From positions 128,136 to 192,135 of the forward strand of contig WARV01000008.1 in the NCBI GenBank assembly GCA_013387205.1: a stretch of 64,000 bases of DNA. Reading direction: 5' to 3'. The position numbers were made by a program, and so were the translations under genes. The notes beneath the pieces are model-generated. The model made no database searches and was not told where the DNA came from. It was given only the letters and a program-made list of their open reading frames with translations. Positions 3,928-47,034 of the stretch are shown in pieces; position 1 is the stretch's first letter, and each line of letters starts with the position of its first letter. The DNA comes from Patescibacteria group bacterium. Lineage in GTDB: Bacteria > Patescibacteriota > Doudnabacteria > UBA920.

Positions 3928-4023
3928 TAATCCGAATTATCCGAATATTATCCAAATGACCCGAATAGGGAAGAACTCATTTGGGGCATTCGGATGCTGA
4001 TTCGGGGCATTAGGATTACATAA
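3928..4023. repeat. ~95-bp palindromic ATCCGAAT/ATTCGGAT element, copy A, ending exactly at lysS start codon
   Basis: aatccgaattatccgaat...caaatgacccgaa...catttgg.gcattcggatgctgattcggggcattaggattacataa; near-identical copy upstream of tsf. Confidence 0.6.
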
Positions 4024-5490
4024 ATGTCAGAAAGACTAGAAGACATCATCAAACACAGGAAATTAAAACTTGAAAATATAAAGCAGCTTGGTATGGACCC
4101 GTATCCGTCCAGCACTTCCCGCACGCATTCAAATAAAGAAGTAATTGAAGACTTCGACAAGCTCAGCCAACAATCCGAACCAGTGACTTTAGTCGGCCGC
4201 ATCCGCAGCCTAAGAACCATGGGCAAACTGGCTTTTGCGCACATTGAAGACGGCACAGCCAAGATTCAAGTCTTGTTTAAATCCGACAATATAGGCGATG
4301 ACCAGTTTAATTTCTTGCTGGAAAATATTGATATTGGAGATTTTATTGAAGCGACCGGCAGCTTATTCATCACCAAAACCAATGAAAAAACTTTGCAGGC
4401 TAAAAACTATAAACTATTAGCTAAAAGCCTGTTGCCGCTTCCAAGCGAACACTACGGTTTAAACGATGAAGAAACCAGGCTTAGAAAGCGCTACCTGGAT
4501 ATACTGCTTAACCCCGAAGTCAAAGATTTATTCGTAAAATCTGCCAAATTTTGGGGCTCAATGAGGGAATTTTTGGTTAAAAAGGGCTTTTTAGAGCTAG
4601 AAATGCCTGTTTTAGAGCCGATTCCGGGCGGAGCCGAGGCAGAACCGTTTATAACCCATCACAATGCCCTAGACCGCGATTTTTACCTTAGGATAAGCCT
4701 TGAATTACCCTTAAAAAAGATGCTTGTTGCCGGATTTGAAAAGGTTTTTGAAATTGGCCGAATTTTCCGCAATGAAGGAATCGATACCGAACATTTGCAA
4801 GATTACACCCAAATGGAATTTTACTGGGCATACGGCGACTTTGAAAAACTCATGCAATTTTTGCAAGACATGTACCAATATATCATCAAAGAAACTTTCG
4901 GCACGCTGCAAATACAAAGCCGCGGAATGACATGCGACTGGAGCGGACAATGGGAAAGAGTGAGCTATATTGATTTATTCAAAAAGCAAACTGGCATAGA
5001 TTTATCTGACGCTAGTAATGACGACTTACGAAAGTATCTCGATAAGAACCACATTAAATACGATCCTGGTTTCCATCGCGGCAAGTTGATTGATACGATT
5101 TTCAAAACAGTCAGGTCTTCCATTCCTTTGGACAAACCCGTGTTCTTAATTGACCAGCCGGTGGAACTGGAACCTTTGGCAAAAAAAGATCCCAAGAACC
5201 CCAAAATAGTCCAGCGCTTACAGATTATCGCTTATGGAACAGAACTCGGCAAAGGTTTTGGCGAGCTTAACGACCCAGTTGACCAGCGTGCCAGATTTGA
5301 GGAGCAGATGCAGAGAAGGGAAGCAGGGGACAAAGAAGCGCAGATGATTGACAACGATTATTTGGAAGCCATGGAATACGGCATGCCGCCGGCAGCCGGT
5401 TTTGGCGTTTCTCAAAGGCTATTTGCGTTCTTGGCCGACAAGCCTATCCGCGAAACCGTCATCTTCCCGCCAATGAAAAGTGAAAAATAA
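4024..5490 (+). CDS. lysS: lysine--tRNA ligase (class II)
   Basis: OB anticodon-binding N-domain, class II motifs (FRNEGIDTEHLQDYTQMEFYWAY, GELNDPVDQRARFEEQ), 488 aa. Confidence 0.95.
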   Translation: MSERLEDIIKHRKLKLENIKQLGMDPYPSSTSRTHSNKEVIEDFDKLSQQSEPVTLVGRIRSLRTMGKLAFAHIEDGTAKIQVLFKSDNIGDDQFNFLLENIDIGDFIEATGSLFITKTNEKTLQAKNYKLLAKSLLPLPSEHYGLNDEETRLRKRYLDILLNPEVKDLFVKSAKFWGSMREFLVKKGFLELEMPVLEPIPGGAEAEPFITHHNALDRDFYLRISLELPLKKMLVAGFEKVFEIGRIFRNEGIDTEHLQDYTQMEFYWAYGDFEKLMQFLQDMYQYIIKETFGTLQIQSRGMTCDWSGQWERVSYIDLFKKQTGIDLSDASNDDLRKYLDKNHIKYDPGFHRGKLIDTIFKTVRSSIPLDKPVFLIDQPVELEPLAKKDPKNPKIVQRLQIIAYGTELGKGFGELNDPVDQRARFEEQMQRREAGDKEAQMIDNDYLEAMEYGMPPAAGFGVSQRLFAFLADKPIRETVIFPPMKSEK

Positions 5491-5494
5491 ATAC

Positions 5495-5548
5495 CAAAAA
5501 CTTATAGGTCCAATATGACTTATAAGTCCTATCAGTCCTATTTGACTT
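5495..5548. repeat. CTTATAAGTCCTATAGG / TCCTATCAGTC repeat cluster (locus 1 of 3)
   Basis: aaaaacttataggtccaatatgacttataagtcctatcagtcctatttgacttatg; related copies at 33993 and 40705. Confidence 0.4.
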
Positions 5549-6136
5549 ATGAAATTACTCCTCGGCACTAGCAATGAAGGCAAAATCAGGCATTATAAAA
5601 AATTCCTATCAAATGCAAATCTGGAATTGGTTACGTTAAAAGATGTTGGCATAACAGATGAGCCGGAAGAAACAGGAATGACGCTTGAGGAAAATGCAAC
5701 ACTTAAAGCAAAATTCTATTATGAAAAATCAGGATTACCAACTCTTGCCGACGATGCTGGTTTTGAAATCCCGGCTTTAAATAACTTTCCCGGTGTGCAA
5801 TCTAGAAGAATAGATGGAATTACCAGAACCGATAAAGAAATTTTGGATATAATAATTGACCGGATGAAGGATTTAAAAAGCCAAGACAGGGCAGCGAGAA
5901 TGAAAGTCGCTCTGGCACTAGCTTTAGATAAAGATGATATTAAAATTGCGACAGGTGAAATTACCGGAATAGTCCCCGAAAAACCTTACGAAAAACTGGA
6001 AGACTATTTTCCCTACCGCTCGCTCCTGTTTATTCCGCAGTTAAACAAGTGGTTTTACGACTTAACCGAAGACGAAGAAAATATGCTTGGATATAGGAAG
6101 GCGGCTGCAGAAAAAATCAAACAATATTTATTATAA
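5549..6136 (+). CDS. rdgB: non-canonical purine NTP pyrophosphatase (RdgB/HAM1 family)
   Basis: MKLLLGTSNEGKIRHYKKFL ... TLEENATLKAKFYYEKSGLPTLADDAGFEIPALNNFPGVQSRR typical of Maf/Ham1 ITPase. Confidence 0.8.
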   Translation: MKLLLGTSNEGKIRHYKKFLSNANLELVTLKDVGITDEPEETGMTLEENATLKAKFYYEKSGLPTLADDAGFEIPALNNFPGVQSRRIDGITRTDKEILDIIIDRMKDLKSQDRAARMKVALALALDKDDIKIATGEITGIVPEKPYEKLEDYFPYRSLLFIPQLNKWFYDLTEDEENMLGYRKAAAEKIKQYLL

Positions 6137-6140
6137 GTTT

Positions 6141-6572
6141 ATGGATAAACAAACCCCCGTGGTCCTGGCGGTGATCCGAAATACTAAAAACCAAGTTTTG
6201 ATAGCAAAACGTAAGGACGAAGATACAATAGGTGCACATGATATGTGGGAATTAGTCGGCGGAAAAATAGAGTTTGGCGAGACGCCGGAACAAGCATTAA
6301 TCAGGGAAGTTAAAGAAGAAACCGGACTTGATGTAAAAATTACCAGGTTGATACCAATTGTAAAATCCCAAGTATGGGAAAAGAAAAACGGGGACAAAAC
6401 ACAAGTCATTCTTATTTCTTACGAATGTTTGGCAGAAGATGCCTCCCAACTCAAACAGAATTTAATTGACGAGGTCCAGGAAGCAAAATTTATTAACATC
6501 AGCGAACTCGATGACTACAATTTTCTCCCGCTCGATAAAGAATTGATATTAAGTTTAAATCTTAAATCGTAA
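6141..6572 (+). CDS. NUDIX hydrolase (MutT-like)
   Basis: Nudix box GGKIEFGETPEQALIREVKEETGLDV; start moved to in-frame ATG 6141 to avoid overlap with rdgB. Confidence 0.75.
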   Translation: MDKQTPVVLAVIRNTKNQVLIAKRKDEDTIGAHDMWELVGGKIEFGETPEQALIREVKEETGLDVKITRLIPIVKSQVWEKKNGDKTQVILISYECLAEDASQLKQNLIDEVQEAKFINISELDDYNFLPLDKELILSLNLKS

Positions 6573-6589
6573 ATCTAAAATCTACAAAT

Positions 6590-7936
6590 ATGCTCGACAT
6601 TAAATTCATCCGCGACAATCAGGAAGCGGTAAAAAAAGCCATCACTGATAAAAATATTGATCTGGATTTGGACCATTTGCTCGACGTTGACCAGCGTCGC
6701 AGGAGCCTTTTGACCGAACTGGAATCTCTGCAAGCAACAAAAAACCAGGTTTCAAAAGAAATCCCAAAACTTTCTCCTGAAGACAAGAAGGTCAAGCTTT
6801 TGGAAATGAAGGAAGTCGACGCCAAATCGGATGAATTAAAAACCCAACTCAAGGAAGTCTTGAAAGAATACGAAGACTTAATGGCAATTACCCCGAACAT
6901 CCCAAGCCCGGAAACTCCGATTGGAAAAAATGACGAAGGAAACGTGCCGTGGAGCTACTGGAGCCCTCAACTCGGGCAGGTTGACCCTAAAGACACGGAC
7001 AAAATCGCGCAAATCCCGACCAAGTTTGATTTTGAACCCAAAGACCACATTACTTTAGGCAAAGAACTGGATCTTATAGATACTGAAGCTGGCGTAAAAA
7101 CTTCCGGTTTTAGGGGGTATTACTTAAAGAACGAGGCCGTACTTTTGCACTACGCGCTTATTTGGCACGCTATTAAAAAAATGCAGGAGAAAAGTTTTAA
7201 TCTTTTCACCACTCCTGTTTTAGTCCGCGACTTTGCCCTTTTTGGCAGCGGCCATTTTCCGTTCGGAAAAGATGAGATTTACCAAATCGGAAATCCCGGC
7301 AAGCTTAGTGACAATGATACCAGGGAAAACCAATACTTGGCAGGAACTTCCGAGCCAAGCCTTTTAGCTTACCATGCGGATAAAATTTTGGATGAAAAAG
7401 ATTTGCCGATAAAAATGTGCGGGATAAGCCCATGCTTCAGGAGTGAAGTGGGCAGTTATGGCAAAGACACCAAAGGCATTTATCGCATACATGAATTCAT
7501 GAAAGTCGAGCAGGTGGTTATTTGCAAAGCTGACATTTTGGAAAGCGACAAGTGGCTGGAATCGATGAGAGAAATCGCGCAGGAAATGCTCATGGACTTA
7601 AAATTGCCGCATAGGGTTTTGAACATCTGCACTGGTGATATGGGCGCCGGGAAATATAAAATGTATGACATTGAAACCTGGATGCCAGCCAGGAAAAATT
7701 ATGGCGAAACCCACAGTGATTCCAATTTGACCGACTGGCAGGCCAGAAGGCTGAACATCCGCTACCGCGACCATGAAGGAAAAACCAAATACGCGTACAC
7801 CTTGAATAATACTGTTATAGCCAGCCCACGCATTTTAATCGCTATTTTAGAAAATTACCAGCAAAAAGACGGGAGCATAGTAATTCCGGAAGTTCTAAGG
7901 CCGCTGGTAGGCAAGGATGTGATAAAGAAACAATAA
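6590..7936 (+). CDS. serS: serine--tRNA ligase
   Basis: N-terminal coiled-coil arm (MLDIKFIRDNQEAVKKAI...), class II core (FRSEVGSYGKDTKGIYRIHEFMKVEQVV, YTLNNTVIASPRILIAILENYQ). Confidence 0.95.
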   Translation: MLDIKFIRDNQEAVKKAITDKNIDLDLDHLLDVDQRRRSLLTELESLQATKNQVSKEIPKLSPEDKKVKLLEMKEVDAKSDELKTQLKEVLKEYEDLMAITPNIPSPETPIGKNDEGNVPWSYWSPQLGQVDPKDTDKIAQIPTKFDFEPKDHITLGKELDLIDTEAGVKTSGFRGYYLKNEAVLLHYALIWHAIKKMQEKSFNLFTTPVLVRDFALFGSGHFPFGKDEIYQIGNPGKLSDNDTRENQYLAGTSEPSLLAYHADKILDEKDLPIKMCGISPCFRSEVGSYGKDTKGIYRIHEFMKVEQVVICKADILESDKWLESMREIAQEMLMDLKLPHRVLNICTGDMGAGKYKMYDIETWMPARKNYGETHSDSNLTDWQARRLNIRYRDHEGKTKYAYTLNNTVIASPRILIAILENYQQKDGSIVIPEVLRPLVGKDVIKKQ

Positions 7937-8057
7937 TATGATACTAATAATGCCAATATTATCCTAAGAACAATCTTTCAAGAGGATTAGTATTATTTGT
8001 ACCATTCGTATGCTTTCGTATATTGGTATCACAATAAAGTAATTTGTCTAGATTTAC

Positions 8058-9005
8058 ATGTTACCTCAAAATAAAAAGTCCCGCTTCCAAAACCAAACTT
8101 TCAAAAAACAGCTGGAAAACGCCAGGGGGTATAAACGAAACGCCAGGAAAATTCCGGAAAAGAAATTTGACGCTATACTGGACAAGTTTGGCTTAAGCTC
8201 TATTTGGACGAAATCTGCGCTTGTTATAATAATTTTAGCTTTGGGATATATAATTTATATCCCGAATTTTTTAAAAATCAAGCAAATTGAAATAACTGGT
8301 ATTAGAAGCGACAACAAGGGAACAATTGAAAATACCACCCGTGATTTTTTAAAAAGCAAGCCGTATTGGCCACAAACGAACTTGTTGCTGTTGTCTAAAC
8401 AAGGCCTTAGCAAATATATCCTGAAAAAGAATACTGAGGTGCTTAAAGTAGAAAGTATCAACAAAAAGTTTCCGAATTCACTCGAAATCCAGATATCTTC
8501 AAGAATGCCGAGATTTGTCCTGCAATCTCCAGATGGAAGTTTTATTATATTCAACGACGGAAAGCTTTACAAAAAACTTGATGCGTCCGCAACGCCGGAA
8601 TCAAATTTAATTTTAATCAAGATAGCCGGAGGTATTGAACCTGGCACAGGCACTTTTACCATGCCGCAAGAAACCATCTCCTCAATTAATTTAATCCAGA
8701 AAGATTTGCCGGATATCACAAAGTTGGCTATTGAATATTATAAAGTAGAATCGATTAAGGATCCGGATTTGATAGTGCAACTGAAAAGCGGTTATAAGAT
8801 TAAATTCGACACCAAGCTGGATACCGCCGATGTATTAAAAAAAACAAGGCTGCTTTTATCGGAAATCCCTGACACTGACCAGGCAAAACTCGAATATTTG
8901 GACATGAGAATTAACGACAGGGGATACGTTTGTATTAAAAATGCCCCATGCGCGAAAGAAACCGTAATAAACAATGCTTCTACAACAATTGAAAGTATTA
9001 AATAG
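8058..9005 (+). CDS. FtsQ/DivIB-like cell-division protein (single TM + POTRA-like domain)
   Basis: basic N-terminus, one TM helix (ALVIIILALGYIIYI), POTRA-like segment IKQIEITGIRSDNK...LKVESINKKFPNSLEIQISSRMP. Confidence 0.5.
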   Translation: MLPQNKKSRFQNQTFKKQLENARGYKRNARKIPEKKFDAILDKFGLSSIWTKSALVIIILALGYIIYIPNFLKIKQIEITGIRSDNKGTIENTTRDFLKSKPYWPQTNLLLLSKQGLSKYILKKNTEVLKVESINKKFPNSLEIQISSRMPRFVLQSPDGSFIIFNDGKLYKKLDASATPESNLILIKIAGGIEPGTGTFTMPQETISSINLIQKDLPDITKLAIEYYKVESIKDPDLIVQLKSGYKIKFDTKLDTADVLKKTRLLLSEIPDTDQAKLEYLDMRINDRGYVCIKNAPCAKETVINNASTTIESIK

Positions 9006-9140
9006 ATTCACTAATATAATTAACCAATCTACGAATCCATACTAATAATAACTAATGACAACTAATTCATACTAAGATAGCATTGGTTGTCATTAGTAAT
9101 ATTCGTTACATTAGTTGATTGGTTAATATTATTCGTTATT

Positions 9141-9821
9141 ATGACTAAAACTTTTATCATTTCTTTAGGCGGCTCGTTAATTAATCCGGGAGAAGTAAAT
9201 ACCGGATTTCTAAAACAATTTAAAAAGCTTGTCGCTGACCGGGTAAAAAAAGGCGATAGGTTTATTATAATTTCAGGCGGCGGCAAGCTGTGCCGCGACT
9301 ATAATGACGCTTTGTCTAAAATCACCAAACCATCTACAGATGACTTAGACTGGATGGGAATCAACATTACCTGGACTAACGCGAAACTTATCCAGTTAAT
9401 GTTCGGCAAACTAGCCAATAAAGAGATTACAAAAAATCCGGAAGTAAAATTCGATTTCAAAGAAAAAATCCTGGTTGGCGGTGGCTGGAAGCCCGGAAGA
9501 AGTTCCGACGGCGCTGCGGTTAAATATGCGACTACGTACGGCGCAGGCACAGTCATTAATTTAAGCAATATAGATTACGCTTATACTAAAGATCCAAAAA
9601 AATATCATGATGCCCAGCCGATTAAAAAAACTACCTGGAAAGAATTCAGGAAGATTGTAGGAAATAAGTGGACACCTGGAATAAATACGCCATTCGACCC
9701 AACTGCTGCAAAATACGCGCAAGAAAATAATCTTAAAGTAATAATCGCCAACGGCAATAATTTAAAAAACCTTGATAGAATTTTAAGCAACAAAGAATTT
9801 ATCGGTACTGAAATCATCTAG
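9141..9821 (+). CDS. pyrH: amino-acid kinase family protein, probable archaeal-type UMP kinase
   Basis: IISLGGSLI N-terminus, IIISGGGKLCRDY, VGGGWKPGRSSDGAAVKYA, DYAYTKDPKKYHDAQP, EFIGTEI pattern of archaeal PyrH; start at ATG 9141 (track start 9087 extends into an upstream inverted repeat). Confidence 0.55.
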   Translation: MTKTFIISLGGSLINPGEVNTGFLKQFKKLVADRVKKGDRFIIISGGGKLCRDYNDALSKITKPSTDDLDWMGINITWTNAKLIQLMFGKLANKEITKNPEVKFDFKEKILVGGGWKPGRSSDGAAVKYATTYGAGTVINLSNIDYAYTKDPKKYHDAQPIKKTTWKEFRKIVGNKWTPGINTPFDPTAAKYAQENNLKVIIANGNNLKNLDRILSNKEFIGTEII

Positions 9822-10076: not shown

Positions 10077-11651
10077 CTAATTCACCTTATACTCCGTAAC
10101 CACAATCCAGGTGCCGACCCAGGGGCGGACATCTTCGTAACCTTTCTCATCAACCTGCACCCAATTTTTCGGCGTCTCTGGCTTATTGGATCCAAATCCA
10201 TTGGTCCACAAAAGCCAAACGGTGTCGCCGGGCTTGGTGGAGGCTTTAAAATCCGGCACCAAATCTTCATTAGTTAAAATCGCCGAACCGGCTATATGGG
10301 AAATATTCTTCACATCTGCCACACCGCCCGTGAAAAGCTGAGGCCTGACAGGAGTCTTGTTATAATATTTATAATTGAAAAATTCAAAAGAAGTCCCGAC
10401 GTATAATTTTTGCCCCGGCTCGACATTGGCCTGCAGATATTTTGCCGCACCAGCCATGCCAGGCCGAGTTTGTATTTTAAGCTGGCTCCAATAATAAGAA
10501 AAGGTGAACAGATTAAGTACGATATAAATTATAAACAAGCCGGCAGCAAATAACTTATTCTTTAATTGCGACATCCATACTGCTAAGGCAATTGAATAGT
10601 ATATGCTGGCAAACAGAAAATATCTATCCATGTAGACCGATGACGAGCTGCCTTTTAATTTGGCCAATAAGGCAAATAAAACCGCTCCGCCAAATGGGGC
10701 AATTATTGCCAAAACCACAAGCCATTTGTGGAAGAAATCGGTTTTTCTGACGAATTTATATATAAAGTAAATTGAAAACAGGAAAATTACTGCAAGCCAA
10801 AATTGCGTGGATGTTTTGGCTGTATCGCGGCCAAGGCCTAAAAGCATATCCCACAAAGTCGCGGGAATGCTCCAGCGGTTGATTGGCGGAATCCAGTACC
10901 CGGCTCCCACTTGGCGGTATTGGAACAAAAAAGTCTTAAGCCAAGGAAGGAAAGACAATCCAATAACCAGGTAAGATGCGATTATGTAAATATATTTTCT
11001 AAAATCCCACTTGTGATGGGAAAACAAGTAAACTAATCCATAAAAACCTAACGCTGCCGCGGTAAAGAACAAATAATAATGCGTGTAAATTATTACTATC
11101 ATGGACAAAGTGAATCCAAAATAGTTTAAAAGCATATTGCGCTTTAAATTGATATCCTGAGGCAGGTTGGGTATTTTTAAAGCCCGGGTCTCATGCAGCT
11201 GCTTTTGCTGGTTCAAAGCTTTAACTAAGAAATACCCGGCAAGCAAGGCAAAAAACGCGCCCATGGTATACATTCTTGCTTCGGTTACATATTTTAGCTG
11301 GAACGGATTAAGGGCGATAAAAACCGCGGCCCAAATCGCAGCTCTCTCGTTTTTAAATGCTTCTTTGACAAATGCATAGCCGGCCCAAATAGAAGCTACG
11401 CCAAAAAATATAGACATGCCGCGCAGGGACAGCAGGGAATCGCCGAAAATATAATGCCAGAACCTCAAAAATACGTAATACATCGGCGGGTGGACATCCA
11501 GCCCAATGCGGTACACCATCTCGCTCCAGCTGTACCTGATAAGCAATGCCGAAAACGCCTCGTCATGCCAGAGGGAAATTAAAGTATTGTTGTAAAACCT
11601 CAAAACCGTCCCTAAAATTAGGATCAAAATTAAAGGAAGGTGTTTTTTCAT
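10077..11651 (-). CDS. membrane glycosyltransferase, PMT/ArnT (GT39/GT83-like) family
   Basis: multi-TM protein with N-terminal LRFYNNTLISLWHDEAFSALL... motif typical of dolichyl-phosphate-mannose-protein mannosyltransferase-like proteins; 524 aa. Confidence 0.75.
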   Translation of the reverse strand: MKKHLPLILILILGTVLRFYNNTLISLWHDEAFSALLIRYSWSEMVYRIGLDVHPPMYYVFLRFWHYIFGDSLLSLRGMSIFFGVASIWAGYAFVKEAFKNERAAIWAAVFIALNPFQLKYVTEARMYTMGAFFALLAGYFLVKALNQQKQLHETRALKIPNLPQDINLKRNMLLNYFGFTLSMIVIIYTHYYLFFTAAALGFYGLVYLFSHHKWDFRKYIYIIASYLVIGLSFLPWLKTFLFQYRQVGAGYWIPPINRWSIPATLWDMLLGLGRDTAKTSTQFWLAVIFLFSIYFIYKFVRKTDFFHKWLVVLAIIAPFGGAVLFALLAKLKGSSSSVYMDRYFLFASIYYSIALAVWMSQLKNKLFAAGLFIIYIVLNLFTFSYYWSQLKIQTRPGMAGAAKYLQANVEPGQKLYVGTSFEFFNYKYYNKTPVRPQLFTGGVADVKNISHIAGSAILTNEDLVPDFKASTKPGDTVWLLWTNGFGSNKPETPKNWVQVDEKGYEDVRPWVGTWIVVTEYKVN

Positions 11652-11720
11652 ACGACACAGATCTTATCGCGGATCTGCTGCGCGGGTATTAATGCTGCTA
11701 AATTTGAGTTAATTGAAAAA

Positions 11721-12824
11721 CTACTTAATAAATACAAGGCTTCCTATTGGGACATAATCACCACTTAATGTAAAATCAAGATTGTTATGTTTGGTTACGG
11801 CAACAGACGATTCTTTTGCAGACGTTTTATCTTTAAAACGCAAAATTGTCCAAACTGCTCCGCTAGTCGCGACCTGTTGTTCTTCGACAATTTTTAAATT
11901 AGTATCTTGTCTAACATCTTTAAGTGCGTCAATACCATTATCTTTACCTACTTCAAGAGAGTAGTTCGCATTTGTCGGACCGTCATTATTTACACCGAAA
12001 TCTAAACGTAAAACCCCAGGGCATTGTTCGCTGTTGTTGCAAATTTGGATAGGATCACAATAATCCAAATTACCACACTCGTTAACTGAATATTTAAACT
12101 CAAAACCATACTCCTCATTTCTATAAGTTTTCCATGTGCTTGTGTCGACTTGCGGTTGGGTAAATTTGAAGGTGGAAAGGATTTCTTTATAAACTTGTTG
12201 CTGCTCGTCAAATATTTTTTGGCCGCAATCAGCTTCACATGCTGGTGATATAATCATGTCGTACACTGAATTATTATTTTCAAATAAAATTCCATTATAC
12301 CCACCCACGTCGCTAAATATATATTCAAGAGCTGGCAGACCTGCAAGCTGAGAATCTGAAATTGTATCAGCACCTTCTATATTTTGGTTTGCCCATTGTC
12401 TTAATGATAAGCGTTGGGGATTTGGGCGCACTTCAATAATAATATCATAGCCGTCCATTGCTACATTAACTCCAGGCTGAGCATTATCCGGTAACAAGCC
12501 GCCAGAACGTAAAAGCTCGAGTTTAGTGTTCTCTAAAATTACAACCATCGAACTCTCTTTATTAAAGTAATGAAATTTTAAATCCTTGGGTTCCTTTAAA
12601 TATAAGTACTTTGGGTAATGAAATTCAAATCCATACTCGTCATTTTTATAAGTCTTCCAATCCTTTAAATCCTCTTTGGCAGTTGTGGTAGAGGATTGGG
12701 TTTTGGTTTTATGATGGATGGAAATCGGACTGTAATCGGCAAAAGGCAAATTGGCATAGTAAATTATGCCGGCGGCAATTGCCGCCACTACAATTATCAA
12801 TATTATCCAATATTTGTGCTTCAT
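11721..12824 (-). CDS. hypothetical membrane-anchored extracellular protein with internal tandem duplication
   Basis: N-terminal TM anchor; motif WKTY(K/R)NEEYGFEF(H/K)Y occurs twice. Confidence 0.5.
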   Translation of the reverse strand: MKHKYWIILIIVVAAIAAGIIYYANLPFADYSPISIHHKTKTQSSTTTAKEDLKDWKTYKNDEYGFEFHYPKYLYLKEPKDLKFHYFNKESSMVVILENTKLELLRSGGLLPDNAQPGVNVAMDGYDIIIEVRPNPQRLSLRQWANQNIEGADTISDSQLAGLPALEYIFSDVGGYNGILFENNNSVYDMIISPACEADCGQKIFDEQQQVYKEILSTFKFTQPQVDTSTWKTYRNEEYGFEFKYSVNECGNLDYCDPIQICNNSEQCPGVLRLDFGVNNDGPTNANYSLEVGKDNGIDALKDVRQDTNLKIVEEQQVATSGAVWTILRFKDKTSAKESSVAVTKHNNLDFTLSGDYVPIGSLVFIK

Positions 12825-12848
12825 GGGATTAAACTGAACTCATCCTAT

Positions 12849-12962
12849 CCTTCTCTTTAGCAAAGAGAAGGAACCAACTAAGTAAGATTAGTAAATAATT
12901 ATCAGCTAACCTTTCTTAGCATGTTCTCCCTCTTTTCTAAAGAGGGAGACAGAGGGAGTTCT
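12849..12962. repeat. structured direct repeat unit 1 (two hairpins CCTYCTCTTT-N3-AAAGAGRAGG plus CTTAGCATGTTC core) flanking DUF559 gene
   Basis: ccttctctttagcaaagagaaggaaccaactaa...cttagcatgttctccctcttttctaaagagggagacagagggagttc; second unit at 13348..13459. Confidence 0.6.
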
Positions 12963-12984
12963 GAATTAGTTATGTTTTTAATTG

Positions 12985-13335
12985 TTAGATTGTTTTAACG
13001 ATTTCTTCGTATACACCCTCAATATTATTCAAGACATCATTATTCCAAAAACGGATGACATAGACACCTATGCTATTTAAGTATTCAGTTCTTTCCTTAT
13101 CATAAAGCTTATCAACTTCCAGATTATGCTGTCCGCCATCGATCTCTATACATAACTTTATTGAAGGGCAATAAAAATCGAGGATATACCTTCCAACCCC
13201 GTATTGCCTAAAAAACTTTAAACCCTTTATTTTCCTGTTTCTTACAATTCCCCAAATTTTCCTTTCCGCATCTGTAAGTCTTTTACGTAATGTTTTTCGT
13301 ATTTCTTTTGTTTGGGACTTGTTATAGATTCTCAT
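12985..13335 (-). CDS. DUF559 endonuclease-domain protein (Vsr/restriction-endonuclease-like fold)
   Basis: LTDAERKIWGIVRNRKIKGLKFFRQY...YILDFYCPSIKLCIEIDGGQH...VIRFWNNDV typical of DUF559; 116 aa. Confidence 0.75.
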   Translation of the reverse strand: MRIYNKSQTKEIRKTLRKRLTDAERKIWGIVRNRKIKGLKFFRQYGVGRYILDFYCPSIKLCIEIDGGQHNLEVDKLYDKERTEYLNSIGVYVIRFWNNDVLNNIEGVYEEIVKTI

Positions 13336-13347
13336 GGAAATTCTTAA

Positions 13348-13459
13348 CTCCTCCTGTCCTCCTCTTTTTTAAAGAGGAGGAACCAACTAAAACGCTAAAA
13401 TGATAATCATCACCACATCGTCTTAGCATGTTCCCTCTCTTTACCAAAGAGAAGGGCAG
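13348..13459. repeat. structured direct repeat unit 2 (same architecture as 12849..12962, with compensatory stem substitutions)
   Basis: cctcctcttttttaaagaggaggaaccaactaaaacg...cttagcatgttccctctctttaccaaagagaagggcagggtgagttcc. Confidence 0.6.
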
Positions 13460-13470
13460 GGTGAGTTCCG

Positions 13471-15598: not shown

Positions 15599-15605
15599 CA
15601 AAACA

Positions 15606-15665
15606 ATTCACAATTGACGATTAGCAATTCACTGCTATTACTCCTGTTAATCGTCAATTGTGAAT
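15606..15665. promoter_or_regulatory. perfect 19-bp inverted repeat (AATTCACAATTGACGATT) with 20-bp spacer between two membrane-protein genes
   Basis: caattcacaattgacgatt ... aatcgtcaattgtgaattg. Confidence 0.4.
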
Positions 15666-15687
15666 TGTTAATTGTTATTTTTAAAAT

Positions 15688-17358
15688 ATGTTCCGCAAAC
15701 GTACAACCAGCGAAAGATTATGGGAGATGTTGCCAGGATTGCAGTTCTGGCTGGTTTTTATTGGAGCCATTACACTCTCTTACCGCCAGCCGGTATGGGC
15801 AGCCGTTTTTATTATCTGCTTTGACCTTTATTGGGTTTTAAAAGCCGTTAATGTCGCAGCTCACTTAATTGCCAGCTACAGGAAGTTCACTTTTTTCGTC
15901 AAAATCGACTGGCTCGACATGGTCAAAAAGCTGTCTGATTTTAAATCGTACGGCGAATTTTTAAGCGGTGAAAAGCTTCAAGCTAAAAAGAAGCTGGAAA
16001 TAAACTTTTTTAAGGAAGAGCTGGAACGGATTAACCGCCTGCAAAATAAAGGCAAGGCAGGAGCCGGCTACCGGGCATTTTACCATCTTATATTAATTCC
16101 TTTCATGGATGAAAGCTTTGAAGTACTCGACTCCACGTTCAGCGCCCTTTCAGCGAGCAACTACGACAAGGAAAATTTAATGGTAATTTTAGCCAGCGAA
16201 GAAAGAGCGGGGATTGCCGCCCAGGAAATTGCTAAAAAAATCCGGGAAAAATTCGAAAAGAATTTCTACAAGTTTTTCATCACAACCCATCCGGACGGAC
16301 TGGAAGGGGAAATTAAAGGCAAAAGCGCTAATGCGAGTTTTGCTGTAGAATCCGTATTGCCGGAATTGCAAAAATTAGGCATAGGGATAGAGCAGGTGTT
16401 AGTTTCCAATTTTGACAGCGACACAATCGTACATCCCCAATACTTTGCCAGGGTCATGTATGAATTTTTGCTGACAGACAATCCGTACCAAAAAAGTTTC
16501 CAGCCAATCGCCATTTACAACAACAACATTTGGGACAGCCCGGCTATAATTAGGGTTGTTTCGGTCTCTAATTCCTTCTGGCAATTTACCGAGAGCTCGC
16601 GCCCCGACCGCCTGCGTACTTTTTCTTCGCACACCATGACGCTAAAAGCCCTGACAGAAGTAGGATTTTGGAAAAAAGACGTCGTCAATGAAGACGGTTA
16701 CATATACTGGCAATGCTATTTGCACTACAAGGGAGACTACCAGGTGGTGCCTTTGTTCATCCCGATTTCTTTGGATACCTGCCTGGCAGACAGCACGTGG
16801 CAAACCATGGTCAACCAGTATAAGCAAAAAAGAAGATGGGCTTACAACGTGGAATATTATCCTCATTTGGTGCCGCAAATTTTAGAAAGCCCGGCTCCGT
16901 TTTGGGACAAATTATACAAGCTCTGGCAATATATTGAAGGGAACTTCAACTGGGCCGCGGCCAGCATTTTAATTTCTTCCTTGGGATGGATGCCGCTGTT
17001 TTTGGGCGGAACGGAATTCAACAACAGCGTTCTGGCCTTCAACCTGCCGTTTGCAACCAAAGCCTTAATGACCATAGCCACATTGTTTTTGATTTTTAGC
17101 GTATATATAAACTTAATTTTGCTCCCGCCGCGGCCGAAAAAATACGGCATCAGCAGGAGCATTATGATGTATCTCCAGTGGTTTTTAGTGCCGCTGTCTT
17201 CGGTAATTTTTGGCAGCCTTCCGGCTATAGAAGCCCAAACTAGGCTAATGCTTGGATACTACCTGGAATTCTGGGTCACGCCCAAAGCCAGGAAAGGGGA
17301 AAACACCGGACTGACCATGAAAGAAATGCAAAGCGTAAAACAAATTTCTAATTCCTAA
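15688..17358 (+). CDS. processive family-2 glycosyltransferase (cellulose/chitin-synthase-like), membrane-bound
   Basis: N- and C-terminal TM helices; GT-A core with DSD (NFDSDTIVHP) and Q(x)xRW motif (QYKQKRRWAYN). Confidence 0.65.
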   Translation: MFRKRTTSERLWEMLPGLQFWLVFIGAITLSYRQPVWAAVFIICFDLYWVLKAVNVAAHLIASYRKFTFFVKIDWLDMVKKLSDFKSYGEFLSGEKLQAKKKLEINFFKEELERINRLQNKGKAGAGYRAFYHLILIPFMDESFEVLDSTFSALSASNYDKENLMVILASEERAGIAAQEIAKKIREKFEKNFYKFFITTHPDGLEGEIKGKSANASFAVESVLPELQKLGIGIEQVLVSNFDSDTIVHPQYFARVMYEFLLTDNPYQKSFQPIAIYNNNIWDSPAIIRVVSVSNSFWQFTESSRPDRLRTFSSHTMTLKALTEVGFWKKDVVNEDGYIYWQCYLHYKGDYQVVPLFIPISLDTCLADSTWQTMVNQYKQKRRWAYNVEYYPHLVPQILESPAPFWDKLYKLWQYIEGNFNWAAASILISSLGWMPLFLGGTEFNNSVLAFNLPFATKALMTIATLFLIFSVYINLILLPPRPKKYGISRSIMMYLQWFLVPLSSVIFGSLPAIEAQTRLMLGYYLEFWVTPKARKGENTGLTMKEMQSVKQISNS

Positions 17359-17476
17359 TTTCTAAGCTCTAAACGATATCTAATTTCCCAATTTCTTAAT
17401 TTCAAATATTTTTTACATTGGTCATTGGGATTTGTTTAGAAATTAGGTCAATTAGTAATTAGGTTAATTTATTATC

Positions 17477-20368: not shown

Positions 20369-20418
20369 TATAACAATTTAATATGTTATTTTGTTATCTT
20401 GTTTAATTGTTATTTTGA

Positions 20419-25650: not shown

Positions 25651-25674
25651 AGTCATTCGGATATCCGAATGACT
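25651..25674. repeat. perfect palindrome AGTCATTCGGAT|ATCCGAATGACT (ATTCGGAT family) between kefB-like 3' end and cysS start
   Basis: agtcattcggatatccgaatgact. Confidence 0.4.
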
Positions 25675-28805: not shown

Positions 28806-28888
28806 CGATCCGAATACAACGAATTAATCCGAATCTACGAATACACTACAAATACAGTATTCGTGGTTCATTCGGATAATTCGGATGT
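28806..28888. repeat. degenerate ATCCGAAT/ATTCGGAT repeat cluster
   Basis: cgatccgaatacaacgaattaatccgaatctacgaat...attcgtggttcattcggataattcggatg. Confidence 0.4.
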
Positions 28889-28934
28889 CCCAAAGGGACC
28901 CCTTCGGGGTATTCGTAGATTAGGATCGCTATTT

Positions 28935-31658: not shown

Positions 31659-31666
31659 AAATTTTT

Positions 31667-32137
31667 CTACTAAATACTAATATTTACTAATAATACTAAA
31701 CTTAATTTTGTAAATTAATTATCCTTTTATATTTGACTCCTGTTTTTGTAAAATTAGCCAAAATACCTAATTTAATTTTTGCAGTTTTAATATAGTCGTT
31801 AACTTGCTTTATGTTTTTTAACCCAAAATTTTCATTTTTCTTAATCTCTAGTATTATCTTTGCGTCATTAATATCTATCAAAAAGTCAATATAGTATATT
31901 CCGATATATTTGCCTAAATAATATAGTTTTATCGGATATTGCTCAATAAAATTGATACCTGCAAATTTTAATGCCAATGAAACCGCTTTTTGGTAATGCC
32001 TTTCCAGTAATTCTCCACCCAATTCCTTAAAAACTTGATATAAAATCCCAATTATTTTATAGCACTCGTCTTTATAAATAAGATCTTTACGGTGCATTTA
32101 TTTTTAGTACTTTTAGTAAATTTTAGTATTTAGTAGT
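31667..32137. mobile_element. ~471-bp unit: GxxExxY-family gene bounded by 33-bp imperfect terminal inverted repeats
   Basis: left ctactaaatactaatatttactaataatact (31667..31700) vs reverse complement of right agtacttttagtaaattttagtatttagtag (32106..32136), ~30/33 match; extremely AT-rich. Confidence 0.55.
31702..32097 (-). CDS. GxxExxY-family protein (PD-(D/E)XK nuclease-like fold)
   Basis: ECYKIIGILYQVFKELGGELLERHYQKA N-terminal signature resembling TIGR04256 GxxExxY; 131 aa. Confidence 0.6.
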   Translation of the reverse strand: MHRKDLIYKDECYKIIGILYQVFKELGGELLERHYQKAVSLALKFAGINFIEQYPIKLYYLGKYIGIYYIDFLIDINDAKIILEIKKNENFGLKNIKQVNDYIKTAKIKLGILANFTKTGVKYKRIINLQN

Positions 32138-32262
32138 AAACAAAAATACAAAACCCCAGAATTCAACCGCCGATGAAATCAGCGACTAAATTCTGGGGTC
32201 CTGGCGAACATTTCGCTTGTTAAAGCAAAAAATTCGAAGCCAAGACGTTTCCGTCCCAGACT

Positions 32263-37574: not shown

Positions 37575-37733
37575 GATATTGATTTTACTGCTTTAAGGAT
37601 AACAAAAAAAACAAGAATTTGCTATAATTTAGATAAATAATAATTTATAATTTTCAATTCTCAATTTTCAGTGAATGTTCCAATGTTTCAATTCTTAAAT
37701 TGTCTCATTGATAAATTTATTGAAAATTGAAAA

Positions 37734-38630
37734 TTGTCACTTGAAAATTTCAATAACGTGCCTTACATAAAAGAAAAATTGGAACTGAAAGCGCAAGAAG
37801 CAGAGCTTTCGGCAGAAAAAGCCATAAACAGTTTTCCTCCAGCGCTAAAGTGGTTTTTTGTGGTTACGATTATTTCCTTAATTCCCGGCTACTACATTGC
37901 CAAATCCGTTTCAAAGGCAATCTGGGACAGAAAACTTAAACAATACCAAATTACTGCCAAGCCGAGCTTTACGGACGCCAAACCTATAACCATAAAAAAA
38001 ATTGACTTGGCTAAAATTTCCGATGGCTCTTTTTCCGCTGCCGCGACAATTGTCAATGAAAATCTGGAACTGTCCGCTGACCAGGTTCCTTACAAATTCA
38101 AGTTTTTCAATGATAAAAAAGAGCTGATCCAGGCTGTCGAGGATAAATTTTATATTCTTCCCAACCAGCAAAAATATATTGTAGTGCCGAAAATTTCAGC
38201 TTCAGAAACAATAGCTTCTGCAGAACTGGAGTTGCCTAAAGATATTCCCTGGATAAAAAGAATGCAAACACCAAAAGTTTCCCTGCTGGCTACAAACCCA
38301 AATTCCTACAATCAGTTCGATCCTTTATCTTTTGCGGTGGAAGGCAATTTTTTAAACACCAGTCCTTACCAGATAAAACAAGTCAGGCTGACGTTTTTAG
38401 TTTACGGCCCGGATAATAAATTCATTGCAGCAAACCAGAGGGATGAATTTACTGTTATTCCAAACGAAAGAAGAGCTTACAAACAGCTCTGGCCAAATGT
38501 ATTTGGGCCAGATGCTGCAAGAATAATAGTCCTTGCTGAAACCGATACCTTGGACAGAGGCAACCTAACCGCTCCCAAAGGAGCGCCCGGCCCGGAATCC
38601 GACCTTGGCAGGCCAGAAAACCAATATTAA
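37734..38630 (+). CDS. hypothetical membrane-anchored protein
   Basis: single TM (WFFVVTIISLIPGYYIA) then ~230-aa extracytoplasmic domain; no family recognised; start uncertain. Confidence 0.45.
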   Translation: MSLENFNNVPYIKEKLELKAQEAELSAEKAINSFPPALKWFFVVTIISLIPGYYIAKSVSKAIWDRKLKQYQITAKPSFTDAKPITIKKIDLAKISDGSFSAAATIVNENLELSADQVPYKFKFFNDKKELIQAVEDKFYILPNQQKYIVVPKISASETIASAELELPKDIPWIKRMQTPKVSLLATNPNSYNQFDPLSFAVEGNFLNTSPYQIKQVRLTFLVYGPDNKFIAANQRDEFTVIPNERRAYKQLWPNVFGPDAARIIVLAETDTLDRGNLTAPKGAPGPESDLGRPENQY

Positions 38631-38721
38631 TTACCTGTCCACGAATTCACTAATTATCACGAATATCACTAATATAGATTTCGTGTAATTAGTGTTTATT
38701 CGTGAATTTAGTGGATAAATA

Positions 38722-40704: not shown

Positions 40705-40788
40705 ATTTGTCTTATAAGTCCTATAGGACCTATAGGTCGTATAAGACTGATAGGATAGCGAATGGCTCAACCCACGGTTGAGGTGTTC
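40705..40788. repeat. ATAGGAC/CTTATAAG repeat cluster (locus 3) plus GGCTCAACC-family hairpin
   Basis: cttataagtcctataggacctataggtcgtataagactgataggat ; gaatggctcaacccacggttgaggtgttc. Confidence 0.45.
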
Positions 40789-43035: not shown

Positions 43036-43072
43036 AGAAGCAACAAAAATAGCGCCGGGAAGTATTCCGGCG

Positions 43073-44376: not shown

Positions 44377-44383
44377 ATTTTTG

Positions 44384-45454
44384 TCATTGTTTGATCGCTT
44401 CTTTTTTGGCTTCAAGGTCGGCTTTTTGGAGGGCGGTGATGATGGGGGAGAGTTCGCCTTCCATGATTATGTTTATCTGGTTGAAATTCTGGTTTATGCG
44501 ATGGTCGGTAACGCGGTCCTGCGGGAAGTTGTAAGTGCGGATTTTTTCAGACCTGTCGCCCGTGCCGATTTGCGATTTGGTCAAATCGCGGATTTTTTTG
44601 TTCTCAATTTCTTCAAAATGGGCAGCCACGCGCGCACGGATGACTTCCATGGCTTTTTCCTTGTTCTGGGTAAAGCTGCGCTCGTCCTGGCACTGCGCGG
44701 TAATACCGGTAGGTATATGGACAATACGCACAGCGCTATATGTAGTATTTACGCTCTGCCCGCCATGCCCGGAAGACGTGGTGGCTTCTATTTTCAAGTC
44801 GTTCGGGTTTATTGAAAAATCTTTTTCTTCCAAAATCGGCAGCACAGCCACTGTGATTGTGGAAGTATGCACGCGTCCGCTTTTTTCAGTTTCTGGCACG
44901 CGCTGGACGCGATGCACGCCGGATTCATATTTGAATTTGCCGTAAGGCCCGCTGCCTGCCCCAGCTTTCCCCTTAACTTCACAAATTATTTCCTTAAACC
45001 CGCCGGCTTCCGAGCGGGAATTGGATACAACGTAAACTTTCCACTTGTTTTCTTCGGCAAACTTGGTATAAGCACGGTACATTTCCGCGGCAAACAAAGT
45101 TGATTCGTCCCCGCCGGCCCCGGCGCGGATTTCTAAAATGGCATCTTTGTCGTCATTAGGATCCTTAGGCAGCAAAGCATCCTCGATTTCTGATTTTAGA
45201 TTTATAATCTCAGACTCAAGGCGCTTAATCTCATCCAATGCCATGGATTTTATTTCCGGATCAGCGTCGTCTAAAAGCTTCTCGTTTTCCTGTAATTCCT
45301 TGATTTTAGATTCCAGATTCTTAATCCTATCCACGGTCGGCGCCAGTTCCGACTGCCTTTTGCCGAGCTTGGCCATATCAAAACCGTTGCCATTGCTCAT
45401 CTGCTCGGTAAGCTGGTTGTATTCGTCTAAGATTTTTTGAAATCCTTGTTCCAT
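44384..45454 (-). CDS. prfA: peptide chain release factor 1
   Basis: GGQ motif (SSGHGGQSVNTT), RF1-type PxT tripeptide present as PET (HRVQRVPETE); 356 aa. Confidence 0.9.
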   Translation of the reverse strand: MEQGFQKILDEYNQLTEQMSNGNGFDMAKLGKRQSELAPTVDRIKNLESKIKELQENEKLLDDADPEIKSMALDEIKRLESEIINLKSEIEDALLPKDPNDDKDAILEIRAGAGGDESTLFAAEMYRAYTKFAEENKWKVYVVSNSRSEAGGFKEIICEVKGKAGAGSGPYGKFKYESGVHRVQRVPETEKSGRVHTSTITVAVLPILEEKDFSINPNDLKIEATTSSGHGGQSVNTTYSAVRIVHIPTGITAQCQDERSFTQNKEKAMEVIRARVAAHFEEIENKKIRDLTKSQIGTGDRSEKIRTYNFPQDRVTDHRINQNFNQINIIMEGELSPIITALQKADLEAKKEAIKQ

Positions 45455-45625
45455 ATTTTAATTGACAAAATTTAAAAAATTTAAATAATTGACATAATTA
45501 TTACTGCAGAATATTTTTGTTCATTTTTGTCATTTATGTCAATTTTGTCATTTCCCGTATTTTACCACACTCCCAACACAAAAGCATCCCCAAAAAGAGG
45601 ATGCTGATGTTTGATGATAAAACGT

Positions 45626-45886
45626 CTACTTAGTCGCTCTTGCTTTTCTCGGCTTCTTTGGAGTGGCTTTAGCCTTAAGCTGGGCAGCCAAAGCAGTGCG
45701 CTTCTTGAATTTATCAACGGTACCGGTGGTGTCAATTAACTTCTGCTTGCCGGTATAAAACGGATGGCACTGGCTGCAGATTTCAGTGTGCAATTCCTGC
45801 ATGCTGGAACCGGTAGTAAACTTGCTGCCGCAAGCGCAAGAAACCTTAGCGTCGTTATAATATTTTGGGTGGATATTGTTCTTCAT
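45626..45886 (-). CDS. rpmE: 50S ribosomal protein L31
   Basis: [10 protein letters not shown]...CxC...[13 protein letters not shown] zinc-ribbon L31 plus basic C-terminal tail. Confidence 0.9.
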
Positions 45887-45904
45887 ATAATAGTAATCCT
45901 AATC

Positions 45905-45985
45905 TGCGAATGGCATCCGAATCAGCGAATGACTATGAATATAATATTCGGGTCATTCGGATATGATTCGGGTCATTCGGATCGG
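45905..45985. repeat. ATTCGGAT/ATCCGAAT repeat cluster
   Basis: gcgaatggcatccgaatcagcgaatgac...attcgggtcattcggatatgattcgggtcattcggat. Confidence 0.45.
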
Positions 45986-46084
45986 TTAAATTGGTTAACT
46001 TATCAGAATTATCTCATATATTATAATCTCTCTTGCCAAAATAGTCAAGGCCTGGTATAATTACAGCAATATTAATCTAACATG

Positions 46085-46205
46085 CTTTGGATGCTTTTCT
46101 GTCCCGGTTTTCCGCCCTGTTGTGGCGGATCGGGATTCCCAAGGCAGAAGTGGCCCGCCTTCGTTCCGATAAAATCGGAACTACGGTGTGGCGAAGAAAG
46201 GGTAA
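46085..46205 (+). promoter_or_regulatory. GC-rich structured 5' leader of rpsB (possible S2 autoregulatory element)
   Basis: ccgccctgttgtggcggatcgggattcccaaggcagaagtggcccgcc...; GC-rich in AT-rich genome directly upstream of rpsB. Confidence 0.3.
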
Positions 46206-46208
46206 ATA

Positions 46209-46937
46209 ATGAAAGAGATAACTCTCTTGGACCTGCTTAAAAGCGGCGCTCACTTTGGACACACCACCTCAAAATGGAACCCCAAAATGAAGCCGTATAT
46301 TTTTACGGTCCGCAACAACATCCATATTTTGGATTTGGAAAAGACTAAAAAGGCCTTGCTTAACGCCGCCAAGTTCGCCCAGGACATAACTTCCAAGGGC
46401 GGTACGGTTTTATTCATTGGCACCAAAAGGCAGTCAAAGGAAATAATCAAGAAAGCAGCCCAGTCCTGCAGCATGCCTTATGTTAATGTCCGCTGGCTGG
46501 GAGGAACTTTTACCAACCACAGGACTATCCAAAGGACCATCCATAAGCTGGAACGCCTGGAAAATTTAAAAGCTACCGGCGAACTGGAAAGCCATTACAC
46601 CAAAAAGGAAAGATTGCTCATTGAGCGTGAAATTGAAAAGATGAAAAAATTGTTCGAAGGCATACAGAACATGAAGCGCTTGCCTGAAGCGATTTTTGTC
46701 ACCGACGTCAAACATGACGACATTGCAGTAAAAGAAGCGCAAAAGAGCAGGGTCAAAGTCATCGGCTTGGCTGATACTAACAGCAACCCGGACGGATTAG
46801 ACTATGCCATTCCTTGCAACGACGACGCGACTAAAGCTATTGAACTTATGTGCACTGTAATTTCCGAAGCCATTAACGAAGGCAGAAAAACCCAGGCAGT
46901 CGTTAAAGAGAGCCTGGTCAAAGAAAATCAAAAATAA
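46209..46937 (+). CDS. rpsB: 30S ribosomal protein S2
   Basis: LLKSGAHFGHTTSKWNPKMKPYIF...; 242 aa. Confidence 0.95.
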   Translation: MKEITLLDLLKSGAHFGHTTSKWNPKMKPYIFTVRNNIHILDLEKTKKALLNAAKFAQDITSKGGTVLFIGTKRQSKEIIKKAAQSCSMPYVNVRWLGGTFTNHRTIQRTIHKLERLENLKATGELESHYTKKERLLIEREIEKMKKLFEGIQNMKRLPEAIFVTDVKHDDIAVKEAQKSRVKVIGLADTNSNPDGLDYAIPCNDDATKAIELMCTVISEAINEGRKTQAVVKESLVKENQK

Positions 46938-46942
46938 GTAAC

Positions 46943-47034
46943 ATAATCCGAATTATCCGAATTCTATACAAATGACCCGAAAAGGGAATTATTTGGAGCA
47001 TTCGGATACTAATTCGGGGCATTAGGATTATAAA
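46943..47034. repeat. ~95-bp palindromic ATCCGAAT/ATTCGGAT element, copy B, ending exactly at tsf start codon
   Basis: ataatccgaattatccgaattctatacaaatgacccgaaaagggaattatttggagcattcggatactaattcggggcattaggattataaa. Confidence 0.6.

Follow-up and report, generated by a model that had tools for sequence, protein, structure and literature searches.

Why should two similar palindromes stand directly ahead of the start codons of lysS and tsf, 43 kb apart in one bacterial genome? Both lie in a 64,000-nucleotide (nt) stretch from a Patescibacteria group bacterium of the Doudnabacteria lineage UBA920 (GenBank assembly GCA_013387205.1, contig WARV01000008.1, positions 128,136 to 192,135), which we refer to as the window. 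An earlier note on this DNA had described these copies (A and B) as ~85% identical imperfect palindromes and had pointed to degenerate clusters of the same words at 25651, 28806, and 45905. It had proposed either an operator or attenuator of translation genes or a miniature inverted-repeat transposable element (MITE) that donates expression signals. Our analysis points away from a gene-specific regulator. The copies are probably small palindromic interspersed repeats that occur across Patescibacteria and are selfish or self-propagating, in the manner of Rickettsia palindromic elements (RPEs) and MITEs.

The description of A and B was borne out. Segments 3928-4023 and 46943-47034 have a mean column identity of 88% in a MAFFT alignment and are 87% identical over 92 nt by blastn (E 9e-20). 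Both are imperfect palindromes with a terminal CATTAGGATTA, and the ATG follows 7-8 nt further on. Pfam identifies the gene at ATG 4024 as a class II Lys-tRNA synthetase and the gene at ATG 47035 as EF-Ts. The word ATCCGAAT was observed 16 times in the window versus 3.0 +/- 1.9 expected (0/100 shuffles reached 16), and the matches concentrate at the five sites that had been named. Two of the three degenerate clusters are further copies (Table 1). The one at 28806 (C) adjoins map, which encodes an M24 peptidase, and has two GC-rich mini-hairpins inserted in its 3' arm. The one at 45905 (D) is on the minus strand and adjoins rpmE as A adjoins lysS, with ATTAGGATTA, then 10 nt, then ATG. C and D both terminate in ATTAGGAT, 9-10 nt ahead of the ATG. 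The third cluster, site E at 25651, did not belong with them. It looks like a terminator, because it is a single perfect hairpin (halves AGTCATTCGGAT and ATCCGAATGACT) followed by T7 on the minus strand. It lies between the 3' end of a Na+/H+ exchanger gene and cysS, its units run ATTCG then CGAAT, which is opposite to the family order, and the family architecture is absent.

Table 1. Positions of the repeat copies and associated features in the window
Feature	Position	Strand	Description
Sigma70-type promoter	3886..3914	+	TTGGCT-17-TGtTATACT; upstream of copy A; consensus scan only
greA terminator	3875-3904		overlapped by promoter 3886-3914
Copy A	3928..4018	+	4+4-unit palindromic element; termini TAATCCGAAT...ATTAGGATTA; within lysS 5' untranslated region (UTR)
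Copy A AGGA	4012-4015	+	8 nt ahead of ATG 4024
Weak extra element	7944-8030		from CNAAT/ATTNG arm scan
Extra member	9006..9140		6+6 CNAAT/ATTNG units; between gene 8058-9005 and gene from ~9150; DNA fold z -5.2
Extra member, AT-rich	17341..17465		CTAAT/ATTAG units; adjoins ATG 17477
Site E	25651..25674	-	10-bp perfect hairpin then T7; one ATTCGGAT/ATCCGAAT pair; terminator-like
Copy C	28806..28929	+	canonical CGATCCGAAT...GTAGATTAGGATCGC element; occupies adk-map spacer; AGGA 9 nt ahead of ATG 28935
GxxExxY cassette	31663..32140	-	131-aa PD-(D/E)XK (PF13366) gene 31702-32097 between inverted arms
Extra member, small	38642..38712		CGAAT/CTAAT ... ATTAG/ATTCG; adjoins ATG 38722; DNA fold z -6.2
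Copy D	45894..45985	-	canonical 4+4 element in rpmE 5' UTR; AGGA 10 nt ahead of ATG 45886
Sigma70-type promoter	46048-46020	-	TTGACT-17-TATAAT; upstream of copy D
Copy B	46943..47030	+	occupies rpsB-tsf spacer; AGGA 7 nt ahead of ATG 47035

Related copies are widespread in Patescibacteria. We scanned genome contigs with the pattern ATCCGAATTATCCGAAT and metagenome contigs with CATTCGGATGN{0,3}ATTCGTAGATT, and the loci found on these other contigs carry L-numbers (e.g., L238). The genome contigs held ~23 loci with the complete palindromic architecture, nearly all from Patescibacteria by name (Saccharibacteria, Doudna-, Collier-, Portnoy-, Komeili-, and Falkowbacteria and others), and the metagenome contigs held at least 116 distinct sites. 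Both scans together gave at least 200 (about 220) related copies. Matches outside Patescibacteria were chance or (Asp-Asn-Ser)n coding repeats, and some matches labelled Gammaproteobacteria had 74-86% nucleotide identity to Patescibacteria loci.

The copies share one design. Each arm is made of about four units of 8-11 nt, with the core CGAAT on the left and ATTCG on the right, or more generally CNAAT/ATTNG. We parsed 63 full copies into this 4+4 architecture, for which the canonical form is A-GCGATC-CGAAT-gacc-CGAAT-nncatc-CGAAT-tatc-CGAAT-[loop 0-45]-ATTCG-tgtc/gagc-ATTCG-gatgn-ATTCG-tag-ATT(C/A)G-GATCGC-T, and canonical copies are 79-116 bp long. There are two types of terminus, GCGATCC...GGATCGC and TATAATCC...GGATTATA, with A, B, L063, L078, and L240 having the second. 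The arms come in the order CGAAT then ATTCG in 70 cases and in reverse order in 1. The termini covary (Watson-Crick fractions 0.84-0.89 versus 0.64-0.69 with partners shuffled), the inner spacers show no covariation, and GACC opposite TAG is a conserved mismatch. Therefore, the two arms are distinct, like the left and right ends of a transposon, and do not resemble the sides of a hairpin selected for stability. Solo 3' arms make up approximately half of the metagenome pattern matches (among the matches listed), and solo half-arrays were seen in either orientation. Some 8-kb loci have several copies (L090, L095, L142, and L155). The loops of gene-less copies are insertion hot spots, occupied by GC-rich mini-hairpins in C, L063, L090, and L196.

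The idea that the palindrome is an operator or attenuator co-regulating translation genes (lysS, tsf, map, rpmE, and cysS) through a cognate repressor has some support in the window, where all five sites precede translation-related genes. Ribosomal proteins, aminoacyl-tRNA synthetases, and chaperones are also among the neighbors at several other loci. However, the genes adjoining the ~220 related copies are functionally diverse and face both ways, which is what the earlier note had said would count against this idea. The 113 open reading frames (ORFs) with a start next to an element spread over 110 Pfam families, and many are unrelated to translation (glycosyltransferases, PilB, ABC transporters, penicillin-binding proteins, TrmD, nucleases, and SMC). 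Gene orientation relative to the asymmetric arms is mixed, ~60:40, for full and half elements alike. The neighbors are not a coherent set at conserved positions, and there is no fixed orientation or position relative to a promoter, with two window copies in 5' UTRs and two inside operons. Furthermore, what precedes cysS is an ordinary terminator, relatives lack the tsf and rpmE copies, and other copies are inside genes and introns, as described below. We conclude that a translation-specific operator is very improbable.

Comparison with relatives showed gain and loss of individual copies. L238 and L240/L241 are syntenic at the prfA-rpmE and rpsB-tsf regions. The rpsB-tsf spacer of L238 is 24 nt, AT-rich, and element-free, whereas a related element occupies it in L240/L241. 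Both L238 and L240 lack the rpmE copy. B is 86% identical to its paralogue A versus 70% to its positional orthologue in L240, which in turn shares 82% identity with a groES-linked copy from another metagenome-assembled genome (MAG). Therefore, similarity follows the genome and not the locus. L095 has two near-identical copies. Some copies have been kept in place at moderate divergence (orthologous sites in L033/L184), and one orthologous site has a full copy in L025 and only the left arm in L071. In one MAG (L090), three long and highly similar elements with nested GC-rich mini-hairpins (392-547, 6141-6249, and 6664-6771) precede rplC, rplN, and rplX within the S10/spc ribosomal-protein operon.

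Copies also occur inside genes. In-frame copies lie within eight or more conserved proteins, including valyl-tRNA synthetase (ValRS), a MurD-like ligase, GatA, a class V aminotransferase, topoisomerase I (topA), PheS, and PheT. The genes stay open through the element, and Pfam domains are intact on both sides. In ValRS the copy is an 84-nt insert between the catalytic and anticodon-binding domains, and the closest homologues (71-75% identity) do not have the extra residues. Another ValRS homologue (P0243) has a linker peptide, KNPKSEYRNPKQIQNSKFKIQN, that looks like the translation of a different element copy in the same linker, which suggests that the ValRS linker might be a recurrent insertion hot spot. 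In 23S and 16S rRNA genes, elements are also found at group I introns, where they occupy the 3' end and in some cases the 5' end. Five rRNA loci (L137, L142, L145, L170, and L183) have several group I introns in their 23S/16S genes, with ATTCG arrays directly after the intron core, just ahead of the 3' exon, and full palindromes near intron 5' ends.

These copies within genes also bear on a broader alternative, that this is a generic host element. The arrays might bind a conserved DNA-binding protein, such as a nucleoid-associated protein or global regulator, or the hairpin might serve mRNA processing, stability, or translation initiation in any operon. We keep this alternative at modest probability because the units are so strikingly conserved across phyla, in word and in architecture. 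The gene starts 11-20 nt past the terminus in most adjoining cases, the folds predicted for the four window copies are stable (z -3.7 to -4.8; copy A -34.7 kcal/mol, z -4.1), and the retention at L033/L184 and L025/L071 would also fit. However, a host function in operons does not account for in-frame copies in conserved proteins, for mixed orientation despite asymmetric arms, for solo half-arrays facing either way, or for presence and absence among relatives with paralogues closer than positional orthologues. Inner spacers without compensatory changes also argue against it, and a scan of the window at Rfam 15 gathering thresholds returned only tRNAs. A permissive scan of 45850-47100 found no relevant family. 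For similar reasons, an RNA-only hairpin function was not favored as the primary one: the reverse strands of A-D fold about equally well, orientation is mixed, and the inner spacers show no compensatory change. CsrA-type GGA sites, DnaA boxes (TTATCC...), and response-regulator direct repeats were considered and rejected, since only CGAAT is conserved and unit spacing is irregular (8-11 nt). For CsrA, the GGA itself is not conserved in the terminal unit, where GTA, GGG, and GAA variants occur.

Does the element nevertheless supply expression signals, as the earlier note had supposed? This probably holds for the ribosome-binding site but not for the promoter. The sigma70-type promoters of A and D lie upstream of the element and not inside it, so A would be transcribed as the lysS leader. 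With A and D downstream of promoters and B and C at junctions within operons, all four copies are expected to be transcribed. We had considered a promoter role for the arrays, with TAGATT as the -10 and ATTCG units in place of the -35, for which the 11-20 nt to the ATG is attractive. It was dropped because ~40% of copies face the wrong way, arrays occur at intron 3' ends and inside coding sequences, and ordinary TTGACA-17-TATAAT promoters are upstream of A and D. On the other side, the terminal ATTAGG unit places AGGA 7-10 nt ahead of the lysS, tsf, map, and rpmE ATGs. Other genes in the window carry GGAGG or no Shine-Dalgarno sequence, and the element-free tsf allele of L238 has none. From sequence and spacing, this AGGA probably acts as the Shine-Dalgarno site of the four genes, and the ~90-nt hairpin probably affects mRNA processing or stability. 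Both would be side effects or exaptations.

Some observations on the expression context of the window can be added here. CATTAGGATTA also occurs element-free at 28175-28185, within the 3' end of the preceding gene and 6 nt before the adk ATG, so the word resembles a native ribosome-binding context in this genome. Many genes have an AT-rich upstream region and no Shine-Dalgarno sequence (for example, those at 811, 6590, 15688, 29853-31658 [minus strand], 44384-45454 [minus strand], and 56673-58430 [minus strand]), and others have GGAGG. With TATAAT only 4 nt ahead of the ATG, the gene at 21997-23046 (minus strand) is a candidate leaderless gene. The GC-rich rpsB leader (46063-46208, between promoter and ATG) has a structured appearance, and parts of it are conserved in L238 and L240. 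It may serve in autoregulation by S2, and a permissive Rfam scan gave no match for it.

If the repeat spreads, what might move it? The only gene found linked to its arms encodes a small PD-(D/E)XK nuclease of the GxxExxY type. At six loci (L213, L096, L077, L081, L136, and L114), a GxxExxY gene of ~112 aa (PF13366 PDDEXK_3, TIGR04256) lies exactly between the arms. The left arm ends 2-6 nt ahead of the ATG, the stop codon is within the right arm, and gene orientation is constant relative to arm asymmetry. These loci were selected by the repeat pattern. A further pattern match, L216, has a 3' arm after the gene, and its contig stops at the gene start, so only the right arm is visible. Protein similarity was the sole criterion for choosing six more Patescibacteria GxxExxY loci. 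A 3' ATTNG array was present at every one of them. At four, a clear 5' CNAAT arm adjoins the ATG, and the other two have weaker or more distant CNAAT words (background, 0.47 CNAAT per 60 nt). GxxExxY genes occupy spacers between conserved genes (yidD-yidC, polA-ppa, and rtcB-archease). One viral-contig scan for such loci gave a single match, around which flanking arrays were not found.

The window has a candidate gene-bearing form of its own (Table 1). Its arms are 43 nt each (31663-31705 and 32098-32140), 86% complementary, and built of ACTAA(T/A)/TTAGTA units; the arm-bracketed GxxExxY genes encode about 112-130 aa. The structure model of the window protein is confident (pLDDT, the predicted local distance difference test score, is 92.9) and has a PD-(D/E)XK fold with the D71...E-x-K86 motif conserved. 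In structure it comes nearest to Cas4, lambda exonuclease, MGME1, and Hjc, each a distant match. Contig L209 carries two GxxExxY paralogues (~11300-11800 and 9060-9560), with CGAAT/ATTCG units around one and CAGAT/ATCTG arrays around the other, so the word in the arms may change with the variant of the nuclease. The window also contains another small nuclease cassette, at 12832-13472. This second cassette has 51-nt inverted arms that are 80% complementary, with a GC-rich mini-hairpin in each, and encloses a 116-aa DUF559/Vsr-like endonuclease ORF (12985-13335, minus strand).

One reading of this geometry is that the palindromes are symmetric targets of homodimeric GxxExxY homing endonucleases, whose genes split their own target, and that the palindromes themselves spread by other means. 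The position of the gene between the arms fits this, and a palindromic target would suit a dimeric PD-(D/E)XK enzyme with the modeled fold and an intact D...ExK. The insertion-prone loops of gene-less copies (C, L063, L090, and L196) and the change of unit word with nuclease variant (CAGAT/ATCTG in L209 and ACTAA/TTAGTA in the window) are also consistent with it. However, it leaves unexplained how gene-less palindromes reach new, nonhomologous sites, such as coding sequences, and hundreds of intact targets beside an active nuclease would be a hazard to the genome. We therefore regard it as improbable. A wider proposal is that GxxExxY proteins are the recognition and cleavage enzymes of an unrecognized class of nuclease-driven mobile elements. 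Such elements would have inverted-array ends of the ATTNG type, with a word that co-varies with the nuclease, and gene-less derivatives in intergenic spacers, rRNA introns, and coding sequences throughout Patescibacteria, some exapted as ribosome-binding sites or mRNA hairpins of core genes. We offer this as a tentative possibility that is rather doubtful as a whole.

For the interspersed-repeat explanation, which we prefer, the following course of events is inferred. GxxExxY nucleases would recognize the pentamer arrays, and the short palindromes may be gene-less derivatives of GxxExxY cassettes or recognition sites of the nuclease. Spread by break repair, gene conversion, or a hairpin intermediate seems likelier than DDE transposition because it leaves no target-site duplication. 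None was found in 24 canonical copies: direct repeats are missing altogether at 21 and amount to a single shared base at 3, and the flanks are an A/T-rich continuation of the palindrome. The window copies would have landed in transcribed spacers (the lysS and rpmE 5' UTRs and the rpsB-tsf and adk-map junctions), after which the terminal ATTAGG unit may have come to supply AGGA at Shine-Dalgarno distance.

Several points weigh against this explanation. No transposition or homing event was observed in the contigs compared. All-against-all blastn of the loci for strain-level empty sites gave a single indel, unrelated to the element, and a strain-level presence/absence junction was not recovered among these loci. 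We know of no transposase in this system, and integrating DNA is more than a PD-(D/E)XK nuclease can do by itself. The association between GxxExxY genes and arms is positional only, and gene calls at the L loci were made with an ORF heuristic. There are also positions that recur or persist (tsf in two lineages, pnp in two phyla, and rpmE, grpE, and rplK twice each). Finally, MITEs and repetitive extragenic palindromic sequences (REPs) are normally lineage-specific, so units conserved across phylum-level lineages, as here, would be atypical of either and could indicate a host function.

The repeat is not confined to A-D in the window. With the generalized unit CNAAT/ATTNG, 15 arms were found versus 2.6 +/- 1.6 in shuffles, and the 64-kb window has at least eight copies, including three extra members and a weak element (Table 1). 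Other intergenic palindromic arrays have different short words with a period of 8-10 nt (37642-37749, 15600-15692, 45460-45553, 20339-20412, and 40710-40755). Their words are TTCAAT/ATTGAA, CAATTC/GAATTG, TTGACA/TGTCA, GATAACAA/TTGTTATC, and GTCCTAT-like. There may be several repeat families that share the periodic-arm design.

The tiny genomes of Patescibacteria are regarded as streamlined. This window nevertheless has at least eight copies of the repeat, which in relatives also interrupts essential genes and rRNA introns. Selfish DNA is therefore a real force in Patescibacteria genomes. Copies in the operon junctions and 5' UTRs of core translation genes, where they apparently supply ribosome-binding sites, bear on gene calling, start-codon choice, and expression design, the last of these in the few genetically tractable Patescibacteria. 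The bracketing arrays provide a concrete hypothesis for GxxExxY, a very large protein family of unknown function. The case also urges caution, in that conserved upstream palindromes in MAGs should not be read as regulons.

We found no description of this element in the literature on the motif, on Patescibacteria repeats or MITEs, and on GxxExxY, and no paper describing GxxExxY in association with such arrays. PF13366/TIGR04256 is classed as of unknown function (PMC3424549). In behavior, the repeat resembles RPEs, which are palindromic, have many copies, and are found both between genes and in frame in essential genes of unrelated function (PMC10969869). Both systems involve palindromic repeats of ~85-150 bp in many copies in a reduced genome, intergenic and in frame in essential genes, with no known transposase. 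In both, an in-frame copy contributes a peptide loop at a site that tolerates it. However, the sequences are probably unrelated, host group and unit structure differ, and the likeness is one of behavior only. The Patescibacteria repeat occurs in hosts across phylum-level lineages, its arms are periodic pentamer units with a conserved left/right asymmetry, and GxxExxY nuclease genes are physically associated with it, a link that RPEs are not known to have.

The comparison with MITEs is more divided. Like Correia/NEMIS and ERIC elements, the repeat is short, has inverted termini, lies upstream of or between genes and within mRNAs, and can supply expression signals. Promoters, integration host factor (IHF) sites, and RNase III sites have been documented in Correia elements (PMC10969869). 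In the Patescibacteria repeat, however, the promoters lie outside, and the donated signal is the Shine-Dalgarno-like AGGA. Classical MITEs have target-site duplications and are derived from DDE insertion sequences. The repeat resembles them in being short, noncoding, and present in many copies per genome with covarying terminal inverted repeats. It is not a classical MITE, because target-site duplications are lacking. The only linked gene is the PD-(D/E)XK nuclease, from a family not known as a transposase. Thus, the earlier suggestion of a MITE stands as far as a proliferating palindromic repeat that places AGGA before four ATGs, and fails in the absence of target-site duplication.

REPs and their paired form (REPINs), with the associated RAYT transposases, share other features. 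They are imperfect hairpins without target-site duplication, their long hairpins are made of two inverted halves, and a conserved asymmetry would make the hairpin of one strand distinct. They also share with the Patescibacteria repeat a GTAG word beside the terminal unit (ATTCGTAGATT). However, REPs are lineage-specific and strictly extragenic, whereas this repeat is conserved across phyla and also lies inside genes and introns, and its arms are arrays of four units instead of a single REP. No RAYT gene was noticed among the genes flanking the arms, although no systematic search was made. TIGR-Tas arrays were rejected as a parallel since their ~36-nt units are in tandem and come with guide spacers, in place of the inverted 9-nt units seen here. 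Free-standing and intron-borne PD-(D/E)XK homing endonuclease genes exist, such as that of I-Ssp6803I, and the small GxxExxY ORF, wedged in spacers of conserved genes and flanked by a split palindrome, is reminiscent of them. In contrast to those genes, its flanks are repeat arrays and not a unique host target, and it is known here from gene geometry and a fold model. What sets the repeat apart from RPEs, MITEs, and REPs is the combination of periodic-unit arms and association with GxxExxY genes.

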